From contig CAZXKZ010000001.1 in assembly GCA_964641825.1 (NCBI GenBank), positions 1 through 45,654 of the forward strand: DNA of 45,654 bases. Reading direction: 5' to 3'. Position numbers and translations under genes: made by a program. Positions 30,689 to 45,654 of this stretch are shown piece by piece. Source of the DNA: an uncultured Bauldia sp. (GTDB lineage: Bacteria; Pseudomonadota; Alphaproteobacteria; Rhizobiales; Kaistiaceae). Below the pieces are notes generated by a model that saw only the letters and a program-made list of their open reading frames with translations, did no database searches and was not told the DNA's origin. Within the stretch, counting starts at the first letter, position 1. Every line of letters starts with the position of its first letter.

Positions 30689-31558
30689 CTACGATTCCAA
30701 AATGACGCCTTGCGATAAGGCTCTTTTAGATTTGTAGCTACGCCAATATTCAATAACTTCTTCTGGCACGTCCAAATTAACATATTCTCCTTCGCGAATT
30801 TTCCTGATGGCTATTGTTATGCCCATCCTCTCGTCATTGTAGATACCAAGCCAACTACCACAATTCTTGCGGTTGTAAACAGCATTTCTAAGTGAAGTAT
30901 TCAATCCCATCTCTAGCGCAGTTCGGGGGCTTATCCCATATTGAGATGGGGTTATTTCTAATACGTCCCCAATACGTGACACTTGCACGTGCTGCATATC
31001 AATGAAATCAAAGCGTAATCCTGGAGCGCACATTACATACCATTCCTCATTCACCCACCGCCGCCAATACCCACTCCCATCTAGTGATAGTGAATCCCAA
31101 AGTTGGAATGGATCATAGCTTGGGCTTTGGAAGTGACCTTTATGTGTCATCCGAAATGTAAATGAATCGCCCGGATTCATCGGCTCTTTGCTCTGGACGT
31201 TTCTGTATACACCTTGCTGGTTTGTGTCAGTACTTTCTATTGCTATGGGCAATTGGAATTTCCCTCTCGGCTCGCATACCGTTTCTTGTTCAGGCCGCCG
31301 CTGGTCGTTGGGGAAAGTTGCCTTAATCGTTTCGATAAAGGTTAGTAGTGCGGGGCTTTCCTCGAACCACTCCCCCCGCTTGGCGTACTGAGCAAACGCC
31401 CTATGTAACCCGGCCTCTAAGTCAGCACCACCGGGCATGACCGCCAATAGTTCTAGCTCGTTATGGTGGGATGTCTGAAAACTGGCAAGGCGACGCCACG
31501 GGTCAGCAGATAAACCGATCTTGATATATCCATCGTCACGAATGAAATAAATCGACAT
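30689..31558 (-). CDS. T5orf172/MUG113 (GIY-YIG superfamily) domain protein with an unknown C-terminal domain of about 200 aa
   Basis: N-terminus IYFIRDDGYIKIGLSADPWRRLASFQTSHH...LHRAFAQYAKRGEWFE. GGAG lies 7 nt before the ATG. Confidence 0.7.
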   Translation of the reverse strand: MSIYFIRDDGYIKIGLSADPWRRLASFQTSHHNELELLAVMPGGADLEAGLHRAFAQYAKRGEWFEESPALLTFIETIKATFPNDQRRPEQETVCEPRGKFQLPIAIESTDTNQQGVYRNVQSKEPMNPGDSFTFRMTHKGHFQSPSYDPFQLWDSLSLDGSGYWRRWVNEEWYVMCAPGLRFDFIDMQHVQVSRIGDVLEITPSQYGISPRTALEMGLNTSLRNAVYNRKNCGSWLGIYNDERMGITIAIRKIREGEYVNLDVPEEVIEYWRSYKSKRALSQGVILES

Positions 31559-31569
31559 GATTCACTCCG

Positions 31570-31662
31570 AAAACGCAAAACTGCCACCTTTACTCTGTGA
31601 AGTGTCTAGGTTCACAGCCGGGGCGTGCCCGTGAGTAAAGGTGGCAGGTTTGCCACAGAGTA
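31570..31662 (-). promoter_or_regulatory. structured 5-prime leader: terminator (15-bp stem enclosing two hairpins, then UUUUGCGUUUU) with a competing 9-bp antiterminator pairing
   Basis: 31581-31595 pairs perfectly with 31633-31647. 31591-31599 pairs perfectly with 31654-31662. The U-tract is the reverse complement of 31570-31580. Confidence 0.5.
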
Positions 31663-31715
31663 TGCAATTGTCGGGCAACAAAAACGCCCCGAAACCATGA
31701 ACCTAGACAATAGAA

Positions 31716-31744
31716 AGTATATCATGGCTGGGTCCCGACCGCAA
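31716..31744 (-). promoter_or_regulatory. candidate promoter TTGCGG-N17-TATACT feeding the structured leader
   Basis: Reverse complement read directly. The -10 box is identical to those at 38256, 42217 and 42285. Confidence 0.3.
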
Positions 31745-36754: not shown

Positions 36755-37672
36755 ATGAACCTGACTGAAGCCGTGGAGGCGTTTCTGGCGGCGCAGGCGG
36801 GAGAGGTCGCTGTGTCTACGCGGCGGTGGTATGGCCGCCGTCTGTCGGCATTCTGCGAGTTCGTCGGACCGATAGCGCTCGATGACGTGGCCGTGGGGTC
36901 GATCCGCGCGTTTCGCGCCCACCTGGTGGAGCGCGAGTTGAGCGGGCACTACATTCACGGCTGCCAGCGGGCGTTGCGCCGGCTGTTCGCGTGGCTGGTC
37001 GACGAAGGGCTGGCGACTCGCAACGTGGCCAAGGACGTGCCGCTGGTGCGACTTCCCCCGCAAGCCCCAAAGGCCCTGAGTGATGACGATTTGGGACGCC
37101 TGTTGGCGCGCCTGCCGTATGAGGACGTGAGGGACCGGGCGATTATCCTGCTGCTGGCCGACACGGGTTGCCGGGTCGGCGGGCTGTGCAGCCTGACGCT
37201 GGAGTCATTGGACCTGCCGAACCGGTGTGCCGTGGTCATCGAGAAGGGCCGGCGCGGCCGTCGGGTCTACTTCAACGATCTCACGGCCGAGACGATCGCG
37301 CTGTATCTGGCGGTCCGGCCGGAGAGCGAGGCCCCTGCCCTGTTCCTGTCGCGCTCGGGGTCGCCGCTGACGACCAACGGGGTGCGGCTGATGCTGGAGC
37401 GGGTGGGCAAGCGGGCGGGGGTGAAGGGGCGGTGTAACGCGCACTCTTTCCGACACGCCTTTGCCCGGTCGTTCCTGCGCAACGGCGGCAACCTGGCGGC
37501 TCTGGGCCGGCTGCTGGGCCACGCGCCGGGGTCGGCCGTGACGGCTCGCTATTATGCGGTGTGGGATGACCGGGAGCTGCAGGAGTACCACCAACGGTTC
37601 AGCCCGCTGGCGAATGTGAACGGCCGAGCGGGGGACAACCAGTCCCCGGCTCATGAGAGCAAGGGGCTATAG
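36755..37672 (+). CDS. int: tyrosine recombinase / phage integrase (XerC/D-like)
   Basis: ADTGCRVGG (Arg), HSFRHAFAR (H-x-x-R) and LLGH...TARYY (His, Tyr nucleophile). Confidence 0.9.
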   Translation: MNLTEAVEAFLAAQAGEVAVSTRRWYGRRLSAFCEFVGPIALDDVAVGSIRAFRAHLVERELSGHYIHGCQRALRRLFAWLVDEGLATRNVAKDVPLVRLPPQAPKALSDDDLGRLLARLPYEDVRDRAIILLLADTGCRVGGLCSLTLESLDLPNRCAVVIEKGRRGRRVYFNDLTAETIALYLAVRPESEAPALFLSRSGSPLTTNGVRLMLERVGKRAGVKGRCNAHSFRHAFARSFLRNGGNLAALGRLLGHAPGSAVTARYYAVWDDRELQEYHQRFSPLANVNGRAGDNQSPAHESKGL

Positions 37673-37685
37673 AACAGTCGTTCTA

Positions 37686-37741
37686 GTGGCGATGGGACTC
37701 ATAAGCCCTAGGTCGATGGTTCAAATCCATCTGGCGCCACA
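37686..37741 (+). other. tRNA-Met-like 3-prime fragment (anticodon-loop CTCATAA, T-arm gatggttcaaatccatc, acceptor tggcgcca); attP core candidate
   Basis: Read directly. The 5-prime half needed for a cloverleaf is absent. Confidence 0.5.
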
Positions 37742-38336: not shown

Positions 38337-38398
38337 GTAGGGAGGTTGTGGGTCCGTCATTTCGATCGGCTTGTCGGTTTTGATTTATGGAGGTCGAG

Positions 38399-39259
38399 AT
38401 GACAATAGGGTCGCGTATTCGTGAGTGGTGGGTGAGCCGGTGGCGTGGAGCGGGCAAGCTGGGCAAGGGGGCCATGCTGATCGTGCCGCTGCTGCTGGGC
38501 TGCTGCTCGCTGACGATGTTGACGGCGGTGTTGGCTCCGGAGCCGGAGCCGACGCGGGCAGCCACGCCGGTTGTGCTCGTGACGCGGACGGCCGCCGGGG
38601 CAACGTCTGCGGCGGTCGATGCTACGGCTACGGAGTTGCCGGTGCGCGCGCCGGCCACGGCCACAGAGAACGCGGATGCAGGCGCACGGGTGGTGGAGCC
38701 TGCGGACATCCCGACACGGGAAAGAACGGCGACGCCCAGGGCAACGGCGGAACCGTCGAGCACGCCGCGGCCGACGGAGACGGCGACGAGCCGGCCGGTG
38801 GTGGCGGCGACGGCCGTGGCAGCCACGGTGGCCGCGGCGCAACCGACCGCGGCGCCGGCCACGTCGACAAGCGCGCCGGCGACAGCTCTTCCACCGACGG
38901 CTATCCCGCCGACGGCCGCGCCGACGCAGCCGCCGTTGCCGACGGCGACGCTGCCGTCGGCAACGGGGTCGCTGGTGATCGTCGGGGTGGACAAGCGGGC
39001 GGAGGTGGTGACGATCCGCAACGACGGCGGGGCGGAGGTGAACCTGGGGGGCTGGGTGTTGCGCTCGGAGCGGGGGAGCCAGGATTGTGCGCTGGGCGGG
39101 GTGATCGGGCCGGGGCAGGTGTTGCAGATCTGGGCGATGGCCGAGGACGCGGGCCAGGGCGGGTTCAATTGCGGGTTCGGCTCGAACATCTGGAATAATG
39201 ATGAGCCGGACGCGGCGATTCTGATCGATCCCAGCGGGGCGGTGGTGTCGCGGTGGTGA
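38399..39259 (+). CDS. lipoprotein-like signal + Pro/Thr/Ala-rich linker + lamin-tail domain (LTD) protein
   Basis: Basic N-region, then AMLIVPLLLGC (lipobox-like LLGC). C-terminus VVTIRNDGGAEVNLGGWVLRSERG...GQVLQIW...NNDEPDAAILIDPSGAVV is LTD-like. GGAGG lies 5 nt before the ATG. Confidence 0.6.
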   Translation: MTIGSRIREWWVSRWRGAGKLGKGAMLIVPLLLGCCSLTMLTAVLAPEPEPTRAATPVVLVTRTAAGATSAAVDATATELPVRAPATATENADAGARVVEPADIPTRERTATPRATAEPSSTPRPTETATSRPVVAATAVAATVAAAQPTAAPATSTSAPATALPPTAIPPTAAPTQPPLPTATLPSATGSLVIVGVDKRAEVVTIRNDGGAEVNLGGWVLRSERGSQDCALGGVIGPGQVLQIWAMAEDAGQGGFNCGFGSNIWNNDEPDAAILIDPSGAVVSRW

Positions 39260-39282: not shown

Positions 39283-40920
39283 ATGAGATCACCGAGTTTG
39301 GAAAATACGTTGTTCTATGGGGATAACCTGCCGATTTTGCGGGAGTACATCCCGGATGAGAGCGTGGATTTGATCTACCTGGACCCGCCGTTTAACTCGA
39401 ACCGGACGTATAACGTGCTCTTCAAGCAGGAGAGCGGGGCCGATAGCGAGGCGCAGATCGCGGCGTTTGAGGATACGTGGCACTGGAACCGGGCGGCCGA
39501 GGAGACGTATCACGAGCTGGGGACGGGGCTGCCGCACGTGGGGAGTATGATCAGCGCGCTGCGGAGTTTCCTGGGCGAGAACCAGATGATGGCTTATCTG
39601 GTGATGATGGCGGCGCGCCTGGTGGAGCTGCACCGGGTGTTGCGGCCGACGGGGAGCCTATACCTGCACTGCGACCCGACGGCGAGTCATTATCTGAAGA
39701 TCGTGCTCGACACGGTGTTTGGGCCGCAGAACTTTCGAGCCGAGATCGTGTGGAAGCGGTCGTCGGCCCATAGCGACGCCAAGCAGGGGGCCAAGCAACC
39801 CGGGCGGATTCATGATGTCATTCTCTTTTACTCAAAGACGAAGGATTGGGTTTGGAATACGGTCTATACAGCTTATGACCCAGATTATGTTGCCTCGAAT
39901 TACCGCCACGTGGATGAAGAAACAGGCCGACTATTTAAATCGACAGATCTGACAGCCGCGAAGCCAGGCGGGGACACATCCTATGAGTGGAAGGGGCGAC
40001 GGCCAACGGAGGGACGCTATTGGGCGTATTCGAGAGAGAACATGCAGAAGTTCGAGGACGAGGGCAGGCTGTATTACACTTCGTCGGGATTGCCCCGACT
40101 AAAGCAATACCTTGACGAGATGGACGGCATCCCTTTGCAGGATTTGTGGACCGACATTTCACCTATCAGTGCTCATGCGGCCGAACGCGTCGGCTACCCG
40201 ACGCAGAAGCCGCTGGCGCTGCTGGAGCGGATCATTCAGGCGAGCAGCAACCCCGGCGACGTGGTACTGGACCCGTTCTGCGGCTGTGGGACGACGATTG
40301 CGGCGGCCGAGAAGCTGGGGCGGCGGTGGATCGGGATCGACATCACGCACCTGTCGATCGCGCTGCTGAAATACCGGCTGAACCAGATGTTCCCGGAAGC
40401 GGCGAAGACGATTGAGGGGGCGCGGCAACTGGCGAGCGAGGACCGGTTCCAGTTCCAGTGGTGGGCGCTGTCGCTGATTCAGGCGCGGCCGTTGGGCGGG
40501 GATGGGGCGAGCAAGCAAGGGAAGAAGGGAGCGGACAAGGGTATCGACGGGATCATCAACTTCATCGACGACCATACGGGGAAGGTGAAGCGGGCGATTG
40601 TGCAGGTGAAGAGCGGGAAGGTGAGTAGCCGGGATATTCGCGACCTGGTGGGGACGGTGAACCGGGAGGGAGCGGCTATCGGCATCTTCCTGACGCTGGA
40701 GGAGGCGACGCGAGAGATGGCGAAGGAGGCGGCCACGGCCGGGTTCTATCACTCGCCGGGGTGGAACCGGGATTATCCGCGGGTGCAGGTGCTGACGGTG
40801 GCCGGGCTGCTGAGCGGGGTAGAACGGGCGGAGCTGCCGCCGGCGGAGTATACGACGTTCAAGGCGGCGCGGCGGGTGAAGGGGGAGGATGGGCCGGAGC
40901 AGGGGAGTTTGTTTGGGTAG
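39283..40920 (+). CDS. beta-class N4/N6 DNA methyltransferase fused to a C-terminal Mrr_cat-like restriction endonuclease domain
   Basis: IYLDPPFNS (motif IV), YPTQKP, LDPFCGCGTT (motif I). Then ADKGIDGIINF...AIVQVKSGKV...AAIGIFLT (PD-(D/E)xK, Mrr-type). Confidence 0.85.
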   Translation: MRSPSLENTLFYGDNLPILREYIPDESVDLIYLDPPFNSNRTYNVLFKQESGADSEAQIAAFEDTWHWNRAAEETYHELGTGLPHVGSMISALRSFLGENQMMAYLVMMAARLVELHRVLRPTGSLYLHCDPTASHYLKIVLDTVFGPQNFRAEIVWKRSSAHSDAKQGAKQPGRIHDVILFYSKTKDWVWNTVYTAYDPDYVASNYRHVDEETGRLFKSTDLTAAKPGGDTSYEWKGRRPTEGRYWAYSRENMQKFEDEGRLYYTSSGLPRLKQYLDEMDGIPLQDLWTDISPISAHAAERVGYPTQKPLALLERIIQASSNPGDVVLDPFCGCGTTIAAAEKLGRRWIGIDITHLSIALLKYRLNQMFPEAAKTIEGARQLASEDRFQFQWWALSLIQARPLGGDGASKQGKKGADKGIDGIINFIDDHTGKVKRAIVQVKSGKVSSRDIRDLVGTVNREGAAIGIFLTLEEATREMAKEAATAGFYHSPGWNRDYPRVQVLTVAGLLSGVERAELPPAEYTTFKAARRVKGEDGPEQGSLFG

Positions 40921-40994
40921 TTTGTTGGCGCGCAAACAGTTGTGAAAGTTTGAGGAGGGTTGACGCGGCGCCGGCGGCGATCTATGCTGGAGAC

Positions 40995-41112
40995 GTCATA
41001 GCTACTCCTTCGTGGCCCCGCCTCCTGGGCCGCGGCCCCGCCAGGGGCGAGATGATTGGATGCGACCAATACACACGACGAAAAAGCCCCCGAGCGCGAC
41101 CGGGGGCTTTTT
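40995..41112 (+). ncRNA. candidate small RNA (promoter TTGACG-N17-TATGCT at 40960-40988 to the terminator at 41085-41112; no credible ORF)
   Basis: Promoter-like and terminator elements bracket about 115 nt of GC-rich, hairpin-prone sequence in a convergent intergenic region. Confidence 0.25.
41081..41112. terminator. bidirectional intrinsic terminator (agcccccg / cgggggct stem flanked by A5 and T5)
   Basis: aaaaagcccccgagcgcgaccgggggcttttt read directly, between convergent genes. Confidence 0.75.
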
Positions 41113-41128
41113 CGTTGGTGTTTTTCGG

Positions 41129-41278
41129 TCATAGCTGCTGGTCTGAAGGTGGGGGCGCGGCCGGCGGCTGCTTGTTGCGTCTGACCAGCCAGACGACAAG
41201 GGCGATTGCCAGGACGGGCACAAGCAGGCACAACAAACCGCCGATCGATAAGAGTTCAGGCCATCCGATTGGACCCAT
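41129..41278 (-). CDS. 49-aa single-TM peptide with a basic, Pro-rich tail
   Basis: The ATG at 41278 is preceded by AGGAGGAACCTCATC. LLSIGGLLCLLVPVLAIALVVWLV forms the TM segment. Confidence 0.5.
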   Translation of the reverse strand: MGPIGWPELLSIGGLLCLLVPVLAIALVVWLVRRNKQPPAAPPPSDQQL

Positions 41279-41996
41279 GATGAGGTTCCTCCTGATTGGG
41301 TTTAGTCGGCAGTCTTGGGTTGAGCCGGTCGACAATCGGTCGACCATCTTGATCCATCACAATGGGCGGGAAGTCTTCCCATGGTTCGAAGGCGGGATGA
41401 ATTGTCACCGATGTGGCGTGAGCCAGAGCCCCGAAGAAGTGAACATACGGCGTTGCAATGTACCAACATTGCTCGCGGGTAAACGCCGCGCGAGCAACTT
41501 CGACCCCCTCGCCCGACAGAGGATAAGTGAAAGTTACGTTCAGCGTGTCAAACTGCACATCCGCCTCTACCACTGCGGCGATCACAAGGTAGGTATGAAA
41601 CTTAATATGGGCAATGACATCTTCGCCTTTCGCATGTTGGGGAACATGCCGGTTAACTGAAATCACTCCGCCTAGTGGTTCAATAACGAAGTTTGGTTGA
41701 AAAGCAGGCTCATTAATGGTTTGTTTCATTGGCGCAGGCGGTCGCGGAATGATTCCTGTCTCAATGAATTGGCGAAGCTCCGGTGTGACTTCGTACCATT
41801 CACCACGAATGCGAGATTTATGAAACTGCCGCTGAAAAGCCTTTTCCTTTTCGGTATCGCCTGGAATGGTATGAAGGAGGGAGATCGGGAATGGGCTGCC
41901 ATTCTGGAGGGCCGCTAATCGGGCACGCAGGTTGGTCGTAGTGCCTATCTTGATGTAGTTACCAGCTTGAACAAAGTAAACGACACTTTCACTCAT
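41256..41996 (-). CDS. T5orf172/MUG113 (GIY-YIG superfamily) domain protein with an unknown C-terminal domain of about 160 aa
   Basis: VYFVQAGNYIKIGTTTNLRARLAALQNGSPFP...FQRQFHKSRIRGEWYE. The start overlaps the RHH stop (ATGAGTGA). Confidence 0.7.
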   Translation of the reverse strand: MSESVVYFVQAGNYIKIGTTTNLRARLAALQNGSPFPISLLHTIPGDTEKEKAFQRQFHKSRIRGEWYEVTPELRQFIETGIIPRPPAPMKQTINEPAFQPNFVIEPLGGVISVNRHVPQHAKGEDVIAHIKFHTYLVIAAVVEADVQFDTLNVTFTYPLSGEGVEVARAAFTREQCWYIATPYVHFFGALAHATSVTIHPAFEPWEDFPPIVMDQDGRPIVDRLNPRLPTKPNQEEPHHGSNRMA

Positions 41997-42198
41997 TGGG
42001 TTTGCTTTCCCCTGTTTTCTCGCGTCGACCACCCCACTCGACTGCCCAGTCAACCGGGTCGCCCTGCTCTTCAAGCCACTCGCCCAAAATCGAGCGCATC
42101 AGCCCCGATAGTGTTGCGCCACGTCGAGCGGCCTGGCGCTTGAGCGCGGCGTGCAGATCGTCGGTCAGAATTACAATTACCCTCTTTTTTTCGGCCAT
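41989..42198 (-). CDS. ribbon-helix-helix (CopG/Arc-like) DNA-binding protein; repressor or antitoxin candidate
   Basis: MAEKKRVIVILTDDLHAALKRQAARRGATLSGLMRSILGEWL is a classic beta-alpha-alpha RHH pattern. It is the distal part of the spurious long ORF 41989..42873. Confidence 0.7.
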   Translation of the reverse strand: MAEKKRVIVILTDDLHAALKRQAARRGATLSGLMRSILGEWLEEQGDPVDWAVEWGGRREKTGESKPNE

Positions 42199-42216: not shown

Positions 42217-42246
42217 AGTATACATGATGCGTCGTTCGTATGTCAA
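42217..42246 (-). promoter_or_regulatory. leftward promoter TTGACA-N18-TATACT
   Basis: Reverse complement of 42241-42246 is TTGACA and of 42217-42222 is TATACT. Confidence 0.55.
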
Positions 42247-42253
42247 TATGACA
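42241..42253. promoter_or_regulatory. palindromic operator candidate TGTCAATATGACA overlapping the leftward -35 box
   Basis: Perfect 5-3-5 palindrome. A related ATATTGACAA lies at 42259-42268, overlapping the rightward -35 box. Confidence 0.45.
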
Positions 42254-42261
42254 ATAAGATA

Positions 42262-42290
42262 TTGACAAGATATGCGCGTTGATTTATACT
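42262..42290 (+). promoter_or_regulatory. rightward promoter TTGACA-N17-TATACT
   Basis: Direct reading. Confidence 0.55.
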
Positions 42291-42372
42291 TGTGATCAGA
42301 AATAGAGAGCGCCCCACACGGCCTGAGAAACTGAATGGGGCGCTCAGAAACCAACTCCCGAAGGAGATGATC

Positions 42373-42900
42373 ATGTCTACTGTAGCACAATCCCCCTGCT
42401 CTGAAAAACCGAATCCGGACTGGAACAACCAGGTCAAGATTGGCCGGGGTCACAACGACCGGGGCGCGTTTCATCGCGCCATTGACCTGGCGGTCGACTT
42501 GTTTCGTTCCGGGCAATGGAACGGCCGCGGGCTGCTCATCATCCACGACCCCTACAACACCCACCAGCGGGCCAAGTTCTGGCGCGAGCCGCTGGTGGCC
42601 GGGGCGGATTATGAGTTTGCCGGCGACTCGGTTTACACGGGCGCCGGCCCGGCCGAGCCGGAGACGGCCGGAGTCACCCCGATTGCTCCCGTCGCCGAGG
42701 CGCTGCTGGATCACCTCAGCCCGATGACGTTGGCAACGATAGCGGCGGAGATGATCGCCGACACCGTGGACAACCGGGCGGAGTGGACGGACGCGCTGCA
42801 GGACGCCTACCACCTCGTATGCCGGATCGGGATCGACCTGGTGGGCGAAGAGGAGTGGGACGAGCTGGTGCACGTCGCTCTGGCGGGGAGCGGGTCGTGA
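42373..42900 (+). CDS. hypothetical early protein
   Basis: AAGGAG lies 6 nt upstream of the ATG. It is the first gene of the rightward operon. Confidence 0.5.
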   Translation: MSTVAQSPCSEKPNPDWNNQVKIGRGHNDRGAFHRAIDLAVDLFRSGQWNGRGLLIIHDPYNTHQRAKFWREPLVAGADYEFAGDSVYTGAGPAEPETAGVTPIAPVAEALLDHLSPMTLATIAAEMIADTVDNRAEWTDALQDAYHLVCRIGIDLVGEEEWDELVHVALAGSGS

Positions 42901-43622
42901 ACGTCATCGACTATACCCAGGTGGTGGCGTTTGAGGCGCGGCTGTACGCGGCCGACGAGCCGGCGAACTTCTACCTGCAGACGGCCGACGGGCGGGAGCA
43001 TCTCGTGAGCCAGTTCGAGTGGTATGACGCGCTCGGGGTGGCGACGCGGCGGGGGCGGGTCGTGCCGTGTGGGGAGGGGAGGTTTCGAGTGGCCGGTGAC
43101 CAGTGGCCAGTGGTCAGTGAAGAGGCGCGACCGCGGCCGGCGACGGTGGAGGCGGCGGTGGCGGAGATGGTGGCGCGGGGGAAGGAGAGCCAGCCGGGGC
43201 TGGGCAAGCGGCTGGACGCGGCCGGCGCGCTGGTGCTGGAGGGGCGGGTGCTCCTGGCGGACGAGCGGAGCGCGCGGATCGGGCCGTATGCGATCACCCC
43301 GGAGGCCTGCACGTGCGCGGACTTCCGGCATCGCGGGGGCTGGTGCAAGCACCGGCTGGCGGTGCGGATGGCGCGGCACCTGGCGCGGCACGGCTTTGCG
43401 ATTCCGGCGGCTCAGGCGGCCGGGCCGGCGCCGCAGATTCGGGCGAAGGACCTGGCGCTGATCGCGAGCGGGCAGGTGATGGACGAGGCGCTGCGGCGCG
43501 ATCGGGCGTATGCGGCGAGCACGCACGGGGCGCGAACGGCGGCGCTGCGGATGTTGGGGAATGGGGCGGGGTCGGTTCCGGCGGAGCTGGCGCGCCGCGC
43601 GGGGATGGCGAAGGACGAATGA
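42897..43622 (+). CDS. SWIM zinc-finger protein
   Basis: CTCADFRHRGGWCKHRLAV (CxC...CxH). GTGA start/stop overlap. Confidence 0.6.
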   Translation: MNVIDYTQVVAFEARLYAADEPANFYLQTADGREHLVSQFEWYDALGVATRRGRVVPCGEGRFRVAGDQWPVVSEEARPRPATVEAAVAEMVARGKESQPGLGKRLDAAGALVLEGRVLLADERSARIGPYAITPEACTCADFRHRGGWCKHRLAVRMARHLARHGFAIPAAQAAGPAPQIRAKDLALIASGQVMDEALRRDRAYAASTHGARTAALRMLGNGAGSVPAELARRAGMAKDE

Positions 43623-45225: not shown

Positions 45226-45654
45226 ATGGACATCGAGAAGAAGCTGAACGAGTATGCGGCGGTGGTGGGGTTTGTGTGCCCGGCGGAGTTCTGGCCGGCG
45301 CTGGGATATGAGGGGGAGGCGCGATATGTGGCGATCTGGTGGGAGCAGTGCGGCGACGAGGCGTCGTGGAGCGACGGCCGGACGTCGGTGGTGGGGGCGA
45401 GTTGGCCGGCGTATCAGAAGCTGATCGAGGCGAACTTCGCGCTCGGCCACCCGGCGCGGTGGCTGCTGGGCAGCAGCGAGACGGCGGCGACGATGTGGTT
45501 GATCATCGACCGGATGACGGAGTGGGCGTGGCTGACGCCGGTGGAGGAGGCGGCGGTCGTGTTGCGGCGGCAGTGGAAAGAGCCGGAGCGGCCGGCGGCG
45601 AGCGTGGAGGAGTGGATGTCGGCGATTGACGAGGCGATGGCAGCGGGGGTGGCC
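45226..45654 (+). CDS. hypothetical protein, 5-prime part (continues at nt 49 after removing the 48-nt overlap; about 185 aa in total)
   Basis: AAGGAGA lies 5 nt before the ATG. 143 codons with no stop to the window end. Missing from the ORF track because it has no stop. Confidence 0.6.
   Translation, partial: MDIEKKLNEYAAVVGFVCPAEFWPALGYEGEARYVAIWWEQCGDEASWSDGRTSVVGASWPAYQKLIEANFALGHPARWLLGSSETAATMWLIIDRMTEWAWLTPVEEAAVVLRRQWKEPERPAASVEEWMSAIDEAMAAGVA
45607..45654. repeat. 48-nt terminal direct repeat, identical to 1..48
   Basis: Exact identity by direct comparison. Confidence 0.95.

Follow-up and report, generated by a model that had tools for sequence, protein, structure and literature searches.

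Here, we examine a three-gene operon near the end of a 45,654-nucleotide stretch of DNA (GenBank contig CAZXKZ010000001.1, forward strand; hereafter the window), which is the genome of a complete, circular temperate tailed phage of ~45.6 kb. The operon encodes a small protein predicted to be of the ribbon-helix-helix (RHH) class, a protein with a MUG113/T5orf172 nuclease domain of the GIY-YIG type (hereafter the T5orf172 protein) and a 49-residue membrane peptide. The explanation that we consider probable is that the locus is the lysis/lysogeny switch of the phage, with the RHH protein as its repressor and the two downstream genes as accessory cargo expressed during lysogeny. A preliminary description of the window had favoured a candidate toxin-antitoxin (TA) or abortive-infection module made of the three genes, and had named as its alternative a lysogeny repressor followed by two morons; comparison with related phages supports the latter, and the three genes are, we judge, very probably independent of one another rather than parts of one TA unit. 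The operon follows the familiar repressor-then-morons pattern, and current understanding stands.

The comparison with related loci carries most of the argument. More than 30 related contigs share with the window, in blastn searches, a conserved block of ~380 bp running from position ~42397 to 42009-42029, which takes in the opening codons of the first lytic gene, two promoters and codons 1 to ~60 of the RHH gene. At 42009-42029 similarity to all related loci stops; it resumes in L012-L015 (L and P numbers denote related loci and proteins, respectively) at the 3′ end of a convergent DNA methyltransferase gene (40918-40300), a conserved border with 80% nucleotide identity in L013. Between the two lies a hypervariable cargo slot (Table 1), for which 12 configurations downstream of RHH were found, three of them empty. 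Besides the T5orf172 protein and 49-residue peptide of the window, the slot encodes a T5orf172 protein and a 206-residue protein in L001/L026; proteins of 94, 75 and 81 residues in L002-L007; proteins of 73, 82 and 240 residues, followed by a convergent gene for a 437-residue protein and a Ser/Thr kinase, in L012-L016; a 71-residue and a DUF2513 protein in L018/L019; proteins of 304, 253, 79 and 77 residues in L020-L022; a 235-residue and an effector-associated domain 7 (EAD7) protein in L023-L025; and single proteins of 339 residues in L027-L031 and 308 residues in L032-L034, while L008-L011, L017 and L056 carry no cargo. Coupling to the RHH gene, by 4-nt overlaps, is seen for cargo other than T5orf172 as well. 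The locus has in this respect the character of an immunity region, in that the regulator is conserved and the genes downstream of it are variable and compositionally foreign (G+C content at third codon positions, GC3, of 0.51 versus ~0.8).

Across this set, the RHH gene and its cargo go separate ways. An identical RHH protein, P0013, stands alone in L017 and precedes the 71-residue and DUF2513 genes in L018 and L019. The RHH cores of the window and L012 are identical at 58 of 59 positions and are followed by unrelated cargo, and the same degree of identity (58/59) joins P0008, which is associated with a T5orf172 gene, to P0010, whose cargo is different. The two T5orf172-associated RHH proteins, that of the window and P0008, have 44 of 59 core residues in common, and judged by these core identities the presence of T5orf172 is discordant with RHH relatedness. 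T5orf172 is found in two of the 12 configurations, behind RHH proteins of two different clades and at the homology boundary. The contigs L001 and L026 (=L055), both short, encode the second of these T5orf172 proteins, P0002, behind P0008, whose gene the P0002 gene likewise overlaps by 8 nt (ATGGCTGA). The third gene there encodes a 206-residue membrane/Pro-rich protein unrelated to the peptide of the window, and DNA similarity between the window and L001/L026 reaches no further than 41328, short of the peptide gene. A homologue of that third gene (30% identity) is the 339-residue cargo of L027/L028, so it too occurs without T5orf172. The three genes of the window do not, in short, co-occur in any other of the genomes surveyed, an outcome that the preliminary description had itself listed among those that would refute its module.

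Some of the cargo in related loci is of a conflict type. EAD7 (L023 3481-3882) is one case, and the Ser/Thr protein kinase, 437-residue and 240-residue proteins of L012-L015 (L012 3580-6438) are another, the 240-residue protein having a PD..(D/E)xK-like motif by eye and no Pfam match.

Residues 1-59 of the RHH protein are conserved irrespective of partner, and residues 60-69 form a variable tail; because just these ~10 residues vary, a partner-specific neutralising domain could not be accommodated. The protein has a β-strand (KKRVIVIL) at its N-terminus and two helices, as well as a conserved 15-residue extension (DPVDW..WGGRR). Its predicted membership of the RHH class follows from family matches that are sub-threshold yet convergent, namely Pfam RHH_5 (4.7e-5), FitA-like (1.1e-4), ParG (0.006) and RHH_1 (0.015), and a profile built from 13 sequences matched the ParG structure 1p94 in the PDB at E=0.021 and VapB26 at E=0.65. 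The 13 RHH homologues, with contigs looked up for nine of them, always occupy the divergent position opposite an early block encoding a SWIM protein. They come from Chloroflexota-type metagenomes and one Chloroflexota metagenome-assembled genome (MAG); searches with the RHH protein of IMG/VR, GTDB genomes and INPHARED found nothing. No other cI-like repressor was seen among the genes scanned, which comprised the switch flanks and the 29-37 kb block and not every small open reading frame (ORF). From its position and conservation, we regard the RHH protein as likely to be the repressor of the switch, and thus as a putative immunity or lysogeny repressor.

That position is the one occupied by cI, in that plus-strand genes start at 42.37 kb, cross the circular junction and continue into the genes for packaging and structure, and the RHH operon is divergent from this lytic direction. 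The two transcription units start from near-consensus promoters set back to back, with their −35 boxes 15 nt apart; the promoter of the RHH operon, from which transcription is predicted to start ~12 nt upstream of the RHH ATG, was present in the preliminary description, and the second, directed towards the lytic genes, was absent from it. The pattern TTGACA-N16-19-TATACT occurs twice in 45.6 kb, both times at the switch, versus 0 expected, and the hexamers of both promoters are invariant in eight related loci, which keep the whole architecture of two −35 boxes, two −10 boxes and, for the first lytic gene, the ribosome-binding site (RBS) and start. A regulator set divergently to the early lytic operon over a compact promoter/operator region is likewise the arrangement of an immunity region.

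Two inverted repeats lie in this region. The first had been described as a palindromic operator; the repeat is indeed there, but it consists of the two facing −35 hexamers with 3 nt added to each, and the spacer between the hexamers differs among RHH clades. Being for the most part those hexamers, the repeat gives no support to a dedicated operator between the −35 boxes. As a candidate repressor site that would cover both promoters, the same repeat is possible. The second, in the 5′ leader of the lytic transcript, has a 10-bp stem that is unique in the genome (0 expected) and follows, over eight loci, the consensus GAGCGC(A/C)CC(G/A)...(C/T)GG(T/G)GCGCTC, with variable loops of 18-20 nt and two compensatory pairs. 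The leader (42291-42375) folds at −33.3 kcal/mol (z = −5.45), a second helix of the fold enclosing the RBS and start codon, and the repeat may be either an RNA regulatory hairpin or a lytic-side operator for the repressor.

Beyond the leader, the first lytic gene (177 aa, 42367-42900, +) is without homologue in related loci past its first codons and RBS, and in L002 and L026 a SWIM-domain gene comes straight after the switch, so that the lytic side of the switch is a mosaic junction as well. The predicted SWIM ORF of the window (42783-43622) overlaps the 177-residue gene by 118 nt, and its true start is for that reason probably later.

Inside the operon, the 8-nt sequence ATGAGTGA (41989-41996) is common to the stop of the RHH gene and the start of the T5orf172 gene, the T5orf172 and peptide genes overlap by 23 nt, AGGAGG stands 9 nt upstream of the peptide ATG, and a bidirectional terminator is used in common with the convergent methyltransferase gene. 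Both the T5orf172 gene and the peptide gene belong to the transcript of RHH, with translational coupling to it. All the sequence-level statements made earlier, on the two overlaps, the RBS, the promoter and the terminator, hold, as does the lower G+C content of the operon, which at 54.2% versus 63-65% in the flanks and 64.0% in the genome is among the lowest 5.6% of equal-sized windows.

Taken as a mechanism, this layout would work as follows. One sigma-70 promoter would serve the early/lytic operon and the other a short operon with RHH first, and the RHH protein would have the position and role of lambda cI or of an Arc/Mnt-type repressor, most likely binding a palindrome of the switch and in this way shutting the lytic promoter and regulating its own synthesis. 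The slot from RHH codon ~60 to the shared terminator would receive unrelated accessory genes exchanged by homologous recombination within the RHH gene. Through translational coupling, synthesis of the repressor would always bring with it that of the T5orf172 protein and the peptide, which places both in the lysogen; there the nuclease could act on incoming DNA to bring about superinfection exclusion or defence, its orphan C-terminal domain supplying recognition of a target or trigger.

The closest known layout is the lambda immunity region, PRM-cI-rexA-rexB, in which the repressor is co-transcribed with exclusion genes expressed in the lysogen, one of them encoding a membrane protein. As in lambda, the repressor gene here is divergent from the lytic early operon, the accessory genes are on the repressor transcript, one downstream product is a membrane protein, and the accessory genes are dispensable and variable among relatives. 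Unlike lambda, the repressor is a 69-residue RHH protein rather than one of the helix-turn-helix (HTH)/S24 type, the cargo is translationally coupled to it, and the exclusion function is a prediction; none of the operon proteins has sequence or domain similarity to RexA or RexB. Repressors of the MetJ/Arc/CopG (RHH) class are known in Arc and Mnt of phage P22 and in other phage and plasmid proteins. The present locus has in common with P22 a small RHH protein located where two promoters diverge amid palindromic elements, and differs from it in the sub-threshold family matches, in the place of RHH at the primary switch instead of the secondary immI region, and in the 15-residue extension.

The T5orf172 protein is a genuine member of the MUG113/T5orf172 family. 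Residues 11-73 match Pfam MUG113 (2e-11; 44.7 bits, cut-off 22.3) and T5orf172 (5.4e-7; 30.5 bits, cut-off 20), both above the gathering threshold; the catalytic-type residues Y7, K16-I17-G18, R26 and G65-E66 are invariant in five and in four aligned MUG113 domains; and AlphaFold2 (AF2), given a four-sequence alignment, modelled the N-domain (residues 1-80) with a predicted local distance difference test score (pLDDT) of 73-89, yielding 116 matches in BFVD at E<=1e-3 to viral MUG113/GIY-YIG/T5orf172 models (root-mean-square deviation 0.8-2 Å over ~80 residues). The single-sequence model was poor (pLDDT 44), and Foldseek of the whole model against the PDB returned nothing significant. [quoted passage not shown] The protein of the window is like these in combining a MUG113/T5orf172 domain and its conserved Glu with a modular fusion, several divergent copies and a place at an exchange boundary, and unlike them in that an N-terminal nuclease domain is joined to an acidic orphan partner without Zn finger, and the gene is wired to the lysogeny promoter of a temperate phage, not to lytic-phage structural or replication modules.

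This partner domain, which follows a Pro-rich linker, has a pI of 5.1 and a net charge of −7.5 (pI 4.8 in its homologue), with no Zn finger or other DNA-binding signature and no Pfam, PDB-sequence or fold match. A word-indexed search of 5.8 billion proteins with the domain returned one relative, P0002 (69% identity), and a HMMER scan of the C-terminal 161 residues against 1.84 billion representatives returned P0002 and P0004, the latter rejected as spurious because it is a tandem-repeat protein. No homologue of the domain beyond P0002/L026 was found in IMG/VR or JGI metagenomes, and tblastn against INPHARED phages gave matches to the N-domain and none to the C-terminal domain. The low GC3 of the T5orf172 gene, 0.51 versus ~0.8 for backbone genes, marks it as foreign.

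The window has a second MUG113/T5orf172 gene (Table 1), with no RHH gene upstream. Its different C-terminal domain had been pointed out before, correctly, and the two proteins had been read as diversified copies with swapped sensors; diversified copies they are, but not demonstrably the products of a sensor swap, in that they are alike in the N-domain alone and their C-terminal domains, without detectable homology (hhalign probability 0.1%), make them different fusions. A leader of ~160 nt upstream of this gene (31559-31720, −), previously called attenuator-like, has nested complementary segments (ctaggttca/tgaacctag, ggggcgt/acgcccc and ctgccaccttTACTC/GAGTAaaggtggcag) and a T-rich run just before the RBS, and gave no match in an Rfam search. 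Another MUG113/T5orf172 gene, for a 211-residue protein with a C-terminal nuclease domain and of low G+C content, is found in L020 (618-1253) and L021 (82-717), inside the early operon, where a LexA_DNA_bind-like gene and a D12 methyltransferase gene flank it, and without RHH. MUG113 genes are accordingly scattered over differing positions in this phage group, and all copies are low in G+C. More distant MUG113 relatives in Actinobacteria (GTDB) have a Zn-ribbon N-terminus and a C-terminal nuclease, the architecture of T5orf172 homing endonucleases (PMC10448857), and these relatives lend no support to a general RHH-MUG113 pairing, which was rejected.

The third product of the operon, as stated previously, is a single-pass membrane peptide: it has one strong hydrophobic segment (19-residue Kyte-Doolittle maximum 2.9 at residues 14-32), followed by a basic, Pro-rich C-terminal tail, RRNKQPPAAPPP. 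It found no homologue except itself among 5.8 billion proteins, and is best explained as an independent, unconserved membrane moron.

Several points weigh against the locus being a repressor-led switch with a nuclease acting for the lysogen. The tight 8-nt overlap of RHH and T5orf172 in both T5orf172 lineages is what one would expect of a TA pair; the RHH identity of the regulator rests on sub-threshold Pfam matches and a weak PDB profile match; and a second candidate regulator, a winged-helix (wHTH) protein (Table 1), is encoded in the lytic operon and is conserved in L008, L017, L019 and L020. The C-terminal domain of the T5orf172 protein was modelled at pLDDT <50 even with the four-sequence alignment, and the defence role has no direct support, the T5orf172 protein having a weak domain-level match of its MUG113 region to the candidate PDC-S57 (9.8e-5) in PADLOC-DB v2. 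Beyond this, the same collection gave no match to the RHH protein, the peptide or the paralogue, and NCBIfam returned nothing for any of the three operon proteins. A defence or exclusion role for the nuclease is accordingly a reasonable conjecture that falls somewhat short of being probable, and a purely selfish homing endonuclease is a possible, if rather doubtful, description of what the protein does; the two functions are not mutually exclusive.

As an account of the locus, the idea that T5orf172 is a free-standing homing endonuclease gene (HEG) is nevertheless the rival that fares best. It would have inserted selfishly beside RHH, would cleave HEG-less relatives in co-infection and co-convert their flanks, and would borrow its expression through the coupling, RHH still being the repressor. 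Most phage T5orf172 genes are read as HEGs at genetic-exchange boundaries beside conserved genes (PMC10448857), and this one is exactly where homology between related phages ends. Its copies are sporadic and in different places, two in the window and one more among the early-operon genes of L020/L021, all are low in G+C, and presence or absence disagrees with the RHH tree. The order of nuclease, linker and C-terminal domain also resembles I-TevI, in which an N-terminal nuclease is joined by a linker to a C-terminal domain. Against it, the C-terminal domain is acidic and devoid of a Zn finger or other DNA-binding signature, unlike the actinobacterial relatives and the 87% of T5orf172 HEGs that carry Zn-finger DNA-binding domains (PMC10448857). 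Presence in two of 12 configurations, with no other homologue, is little to show for an element that spreads, and the T5orf172 proteins of the two lineages (69% amino acid identity) have diverged to the same depth as the flanking RHH genes (75% in the core), with no sign of recent transfer. We consider this account of the locus unlikely.

A more ambitious version of the switch, in which the T5orf172 protein, with or without the peptide, is a new RexAB-like prophage exclusion or abortive-infection system on the repressor promoter, we would call a long shot. A cue of infection, or a phage protein, would be detected by the acidic domain, which would set the nuclease free, and the 3′ end of the RHH gene would be a docking site for defence cassettes swapped among Chloroflexota phages.

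The type II TA or three-component abortive-infection module put forward in the preliminary description, with RHH as autorepressing antitoxin, T5orf172 as toxin and the peptide as third component, is now very unlikely. Its appeal is understandable: as in RHH type II systems (CcdA, ParD, FitA, VapB and RelB), a small RHH gene comes first, overlaps an enzyme-like gene (an overlap of 8 nt kept in L001/L026) and has a single promoter, with palindromes, and a terminator in common with it. The RHH protein moreover matches antitoxin-type families (FitA-like and VapB26, at the values given above), the partner is of nuclease type with an intact core, and several of the RHH-coupled cargo genes encode proteins of 71-94 residues, a toxin-like size. 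Unlike such antitoxins, the RHH protein does not depend on its partner and may be found alone: this is the case in three of the configurations, one and the same protein is seen both with a partner and without, and near-identical cores (58/59) have unrelated ones. The variable tail of ~10 residues offers too little length for a partner-specific neutralising domain, and RHH is always at the conserved divergent promoter pair of a phage switch. The third gene differs between the two T5orf172 lineages, the peptide of the window being an orphan, and both the paralogue and the L020 copy of T5orf172 do without RHH. The T5orf172 protein matched no known toxin family in Pfam, PADLOC or NCBIfam. What survives of the proposal is a defence-type nuclease that is plausible on its own; the antitoxin role of RHH does not.

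Equally little weight attaches to the T5orf172 protein being a domesticated, non-cleaving regulator like CapR, or a switch accessory, such as a modulator or antirepressor, whose acidic domain contacts RHH or a different phage protein. There is a precedent in PLE CapR, a T5orf172-derived repressor (PMC10448857), MUG113 domains of other phages are joined to proteins of the replication-initiator and HTH kinds (P0003, Mx8 p19 and a DnaD-like loader), and production of the protein is coupled to RHH; against this, the catalytic-type residues are all retained, and 10 of the 12 related configurations do without the gene, which puts it outside the core switch.

Restriction-modification, with T5orf172 as a GIY-YIG restriction endonuclease, the convergent methyltransferase as its cognate enzyme and RHH as controller (C) protein, is hardly credible either: GIY-YIG restriction enzymes exist, restriction enzymes are typically sequence orphans, the small regulator of C-R operons overlaps the nuclease gene as RHH does, and the nuclease operon and the methyltransferase gene converge on one terminator, but a homologue of the methyltransferase (80% nucleotide identity over 640 nt) is in L013 with other cargo and no T5orf172, conservation of RHH does not depend on a nuclease, the methyltransferase has an Mrr-like domain of its own, and three methyltransferases in one phage are typical of anti-restriction orphans.

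If the switch is as we propose, it would be the first lysis/lysogeny switch annotated for a group of Chloroflexota temperate phages that lacks a cultured representative (no INPHARED or IMG/VR match), combining an RHH-type regulator with a symmetric pair of near-consensus promoters and a palindrome conserved in the leader. Its cargo-exchange hotspot begins inside the repressor gene and is a useful place to mine for new defence genes, and the T5orf172 protein adds a new architecture to its family, with an N-terminal nuclease and an acidic orphan domain.

Table 1. Features of the switch, its cargo slot and other parts of the window discussed in the text (strand: +, −, both, or. where none applies)
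Feature	Position	Strand	Details
RHH ORF	41989-42198	−	ATG 42198, stop TGA 41991-41989, 69 aa
T5orf172/MUG113 ORF	41256-41996	−	ATG 41996, stop 41256, 246 aa
MUG113/T5orf172 (GIY-YIG-type) N-domain	residues 1-80, 41757-41996	−	Pfam, AF2
Pro-rich linker of T5orf172 protein	~residues 83-105	−	
Acidic orphan C-terminal domain of T5orf172 protein	~residues 106-225	−	
Peptide ORF	41129-41278	−	ATG 41278, stop 41129, 49 aa
RHH-operon promoter, TTGACA-N18-TATACT	42217..42246	−	11/12 consensus match
Divergent lytic-direction promoter, TTGACA-N17-TATACT	42262..42290	+	11/12 consensus match
Inverted repeat described earlier as palindromic operator, TGTCAATAT-N9-ATATTGACA	42241..42267	.	Halves 42241-42249 and 42259-42267
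10-bp inverted repeat in lytic 5′ leader, GAGCGCCCCA...TGGGGCGCTC	42307..42345	+	8 loci
Bidirectional intrinsic terminator	41076-41117	both	16-17-bp stem, T runs on both strands
Hypervariable cargo slot	40921..42008	.	Borders: RHH codon ~60 and 3′ end of methyltransferase-Mrr gene
N6_N4 DNA methyltransferase with C-terminal Mrr_cat/inactive-REase-like domain	39283-40920	+	Convergent with RHH operon
T5orf172 paralogue	30689-31558	−	MUG113 1.1e-8
Tyrosine integrase	36755-37672		Pfam Phage_integrase 1.8e-30
tRNA-like sequence at integrase 3′ end	37663-37739	+	Rfam tRNA 32.5 bits, above gathering threshold
wHTH protein, 117 aa	1793-2146	+	LexA_DNA_bind 5.3e-8; phrog_362 'transcriptional repressor' 1.3e-5

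The ends of the window overlap exactly over 48 nt (1-48 versus 45607-45654), which makes it a circular assembly of a complete genome, and a plus-strand ORF is continuous across the circular junction. Its gene content includes the large terminase subunit (TerL), three DNA methyltransferases and a replication-type HTH_36 protein. That the phage is temperate is indicated by the integrase and a candidate attachment site, and relatives lie inside a 1.07-Mb contig of a Chloroflexota MAG; among cultured phages, a megablast search with the region and an RHH search of INPHARED gave no match. The tRNA-like sequence at the integrase 3′ end, in which ARAGORN called no tRNA, is probably the core of the phage attachment site attP, derived from a host tRNA gene.

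Close to the slot, several of the related phages, like the window, encode a lamin-tail-domain (LTD) protein (window 38387-39259, +; L002 5722-6639; L008 6464-7642), which in L008 carries a fused staphylococcal-nuclease domain, and which may be a secreted or surface protein of nuclease type encoded by a lysogenic-conversion gene.

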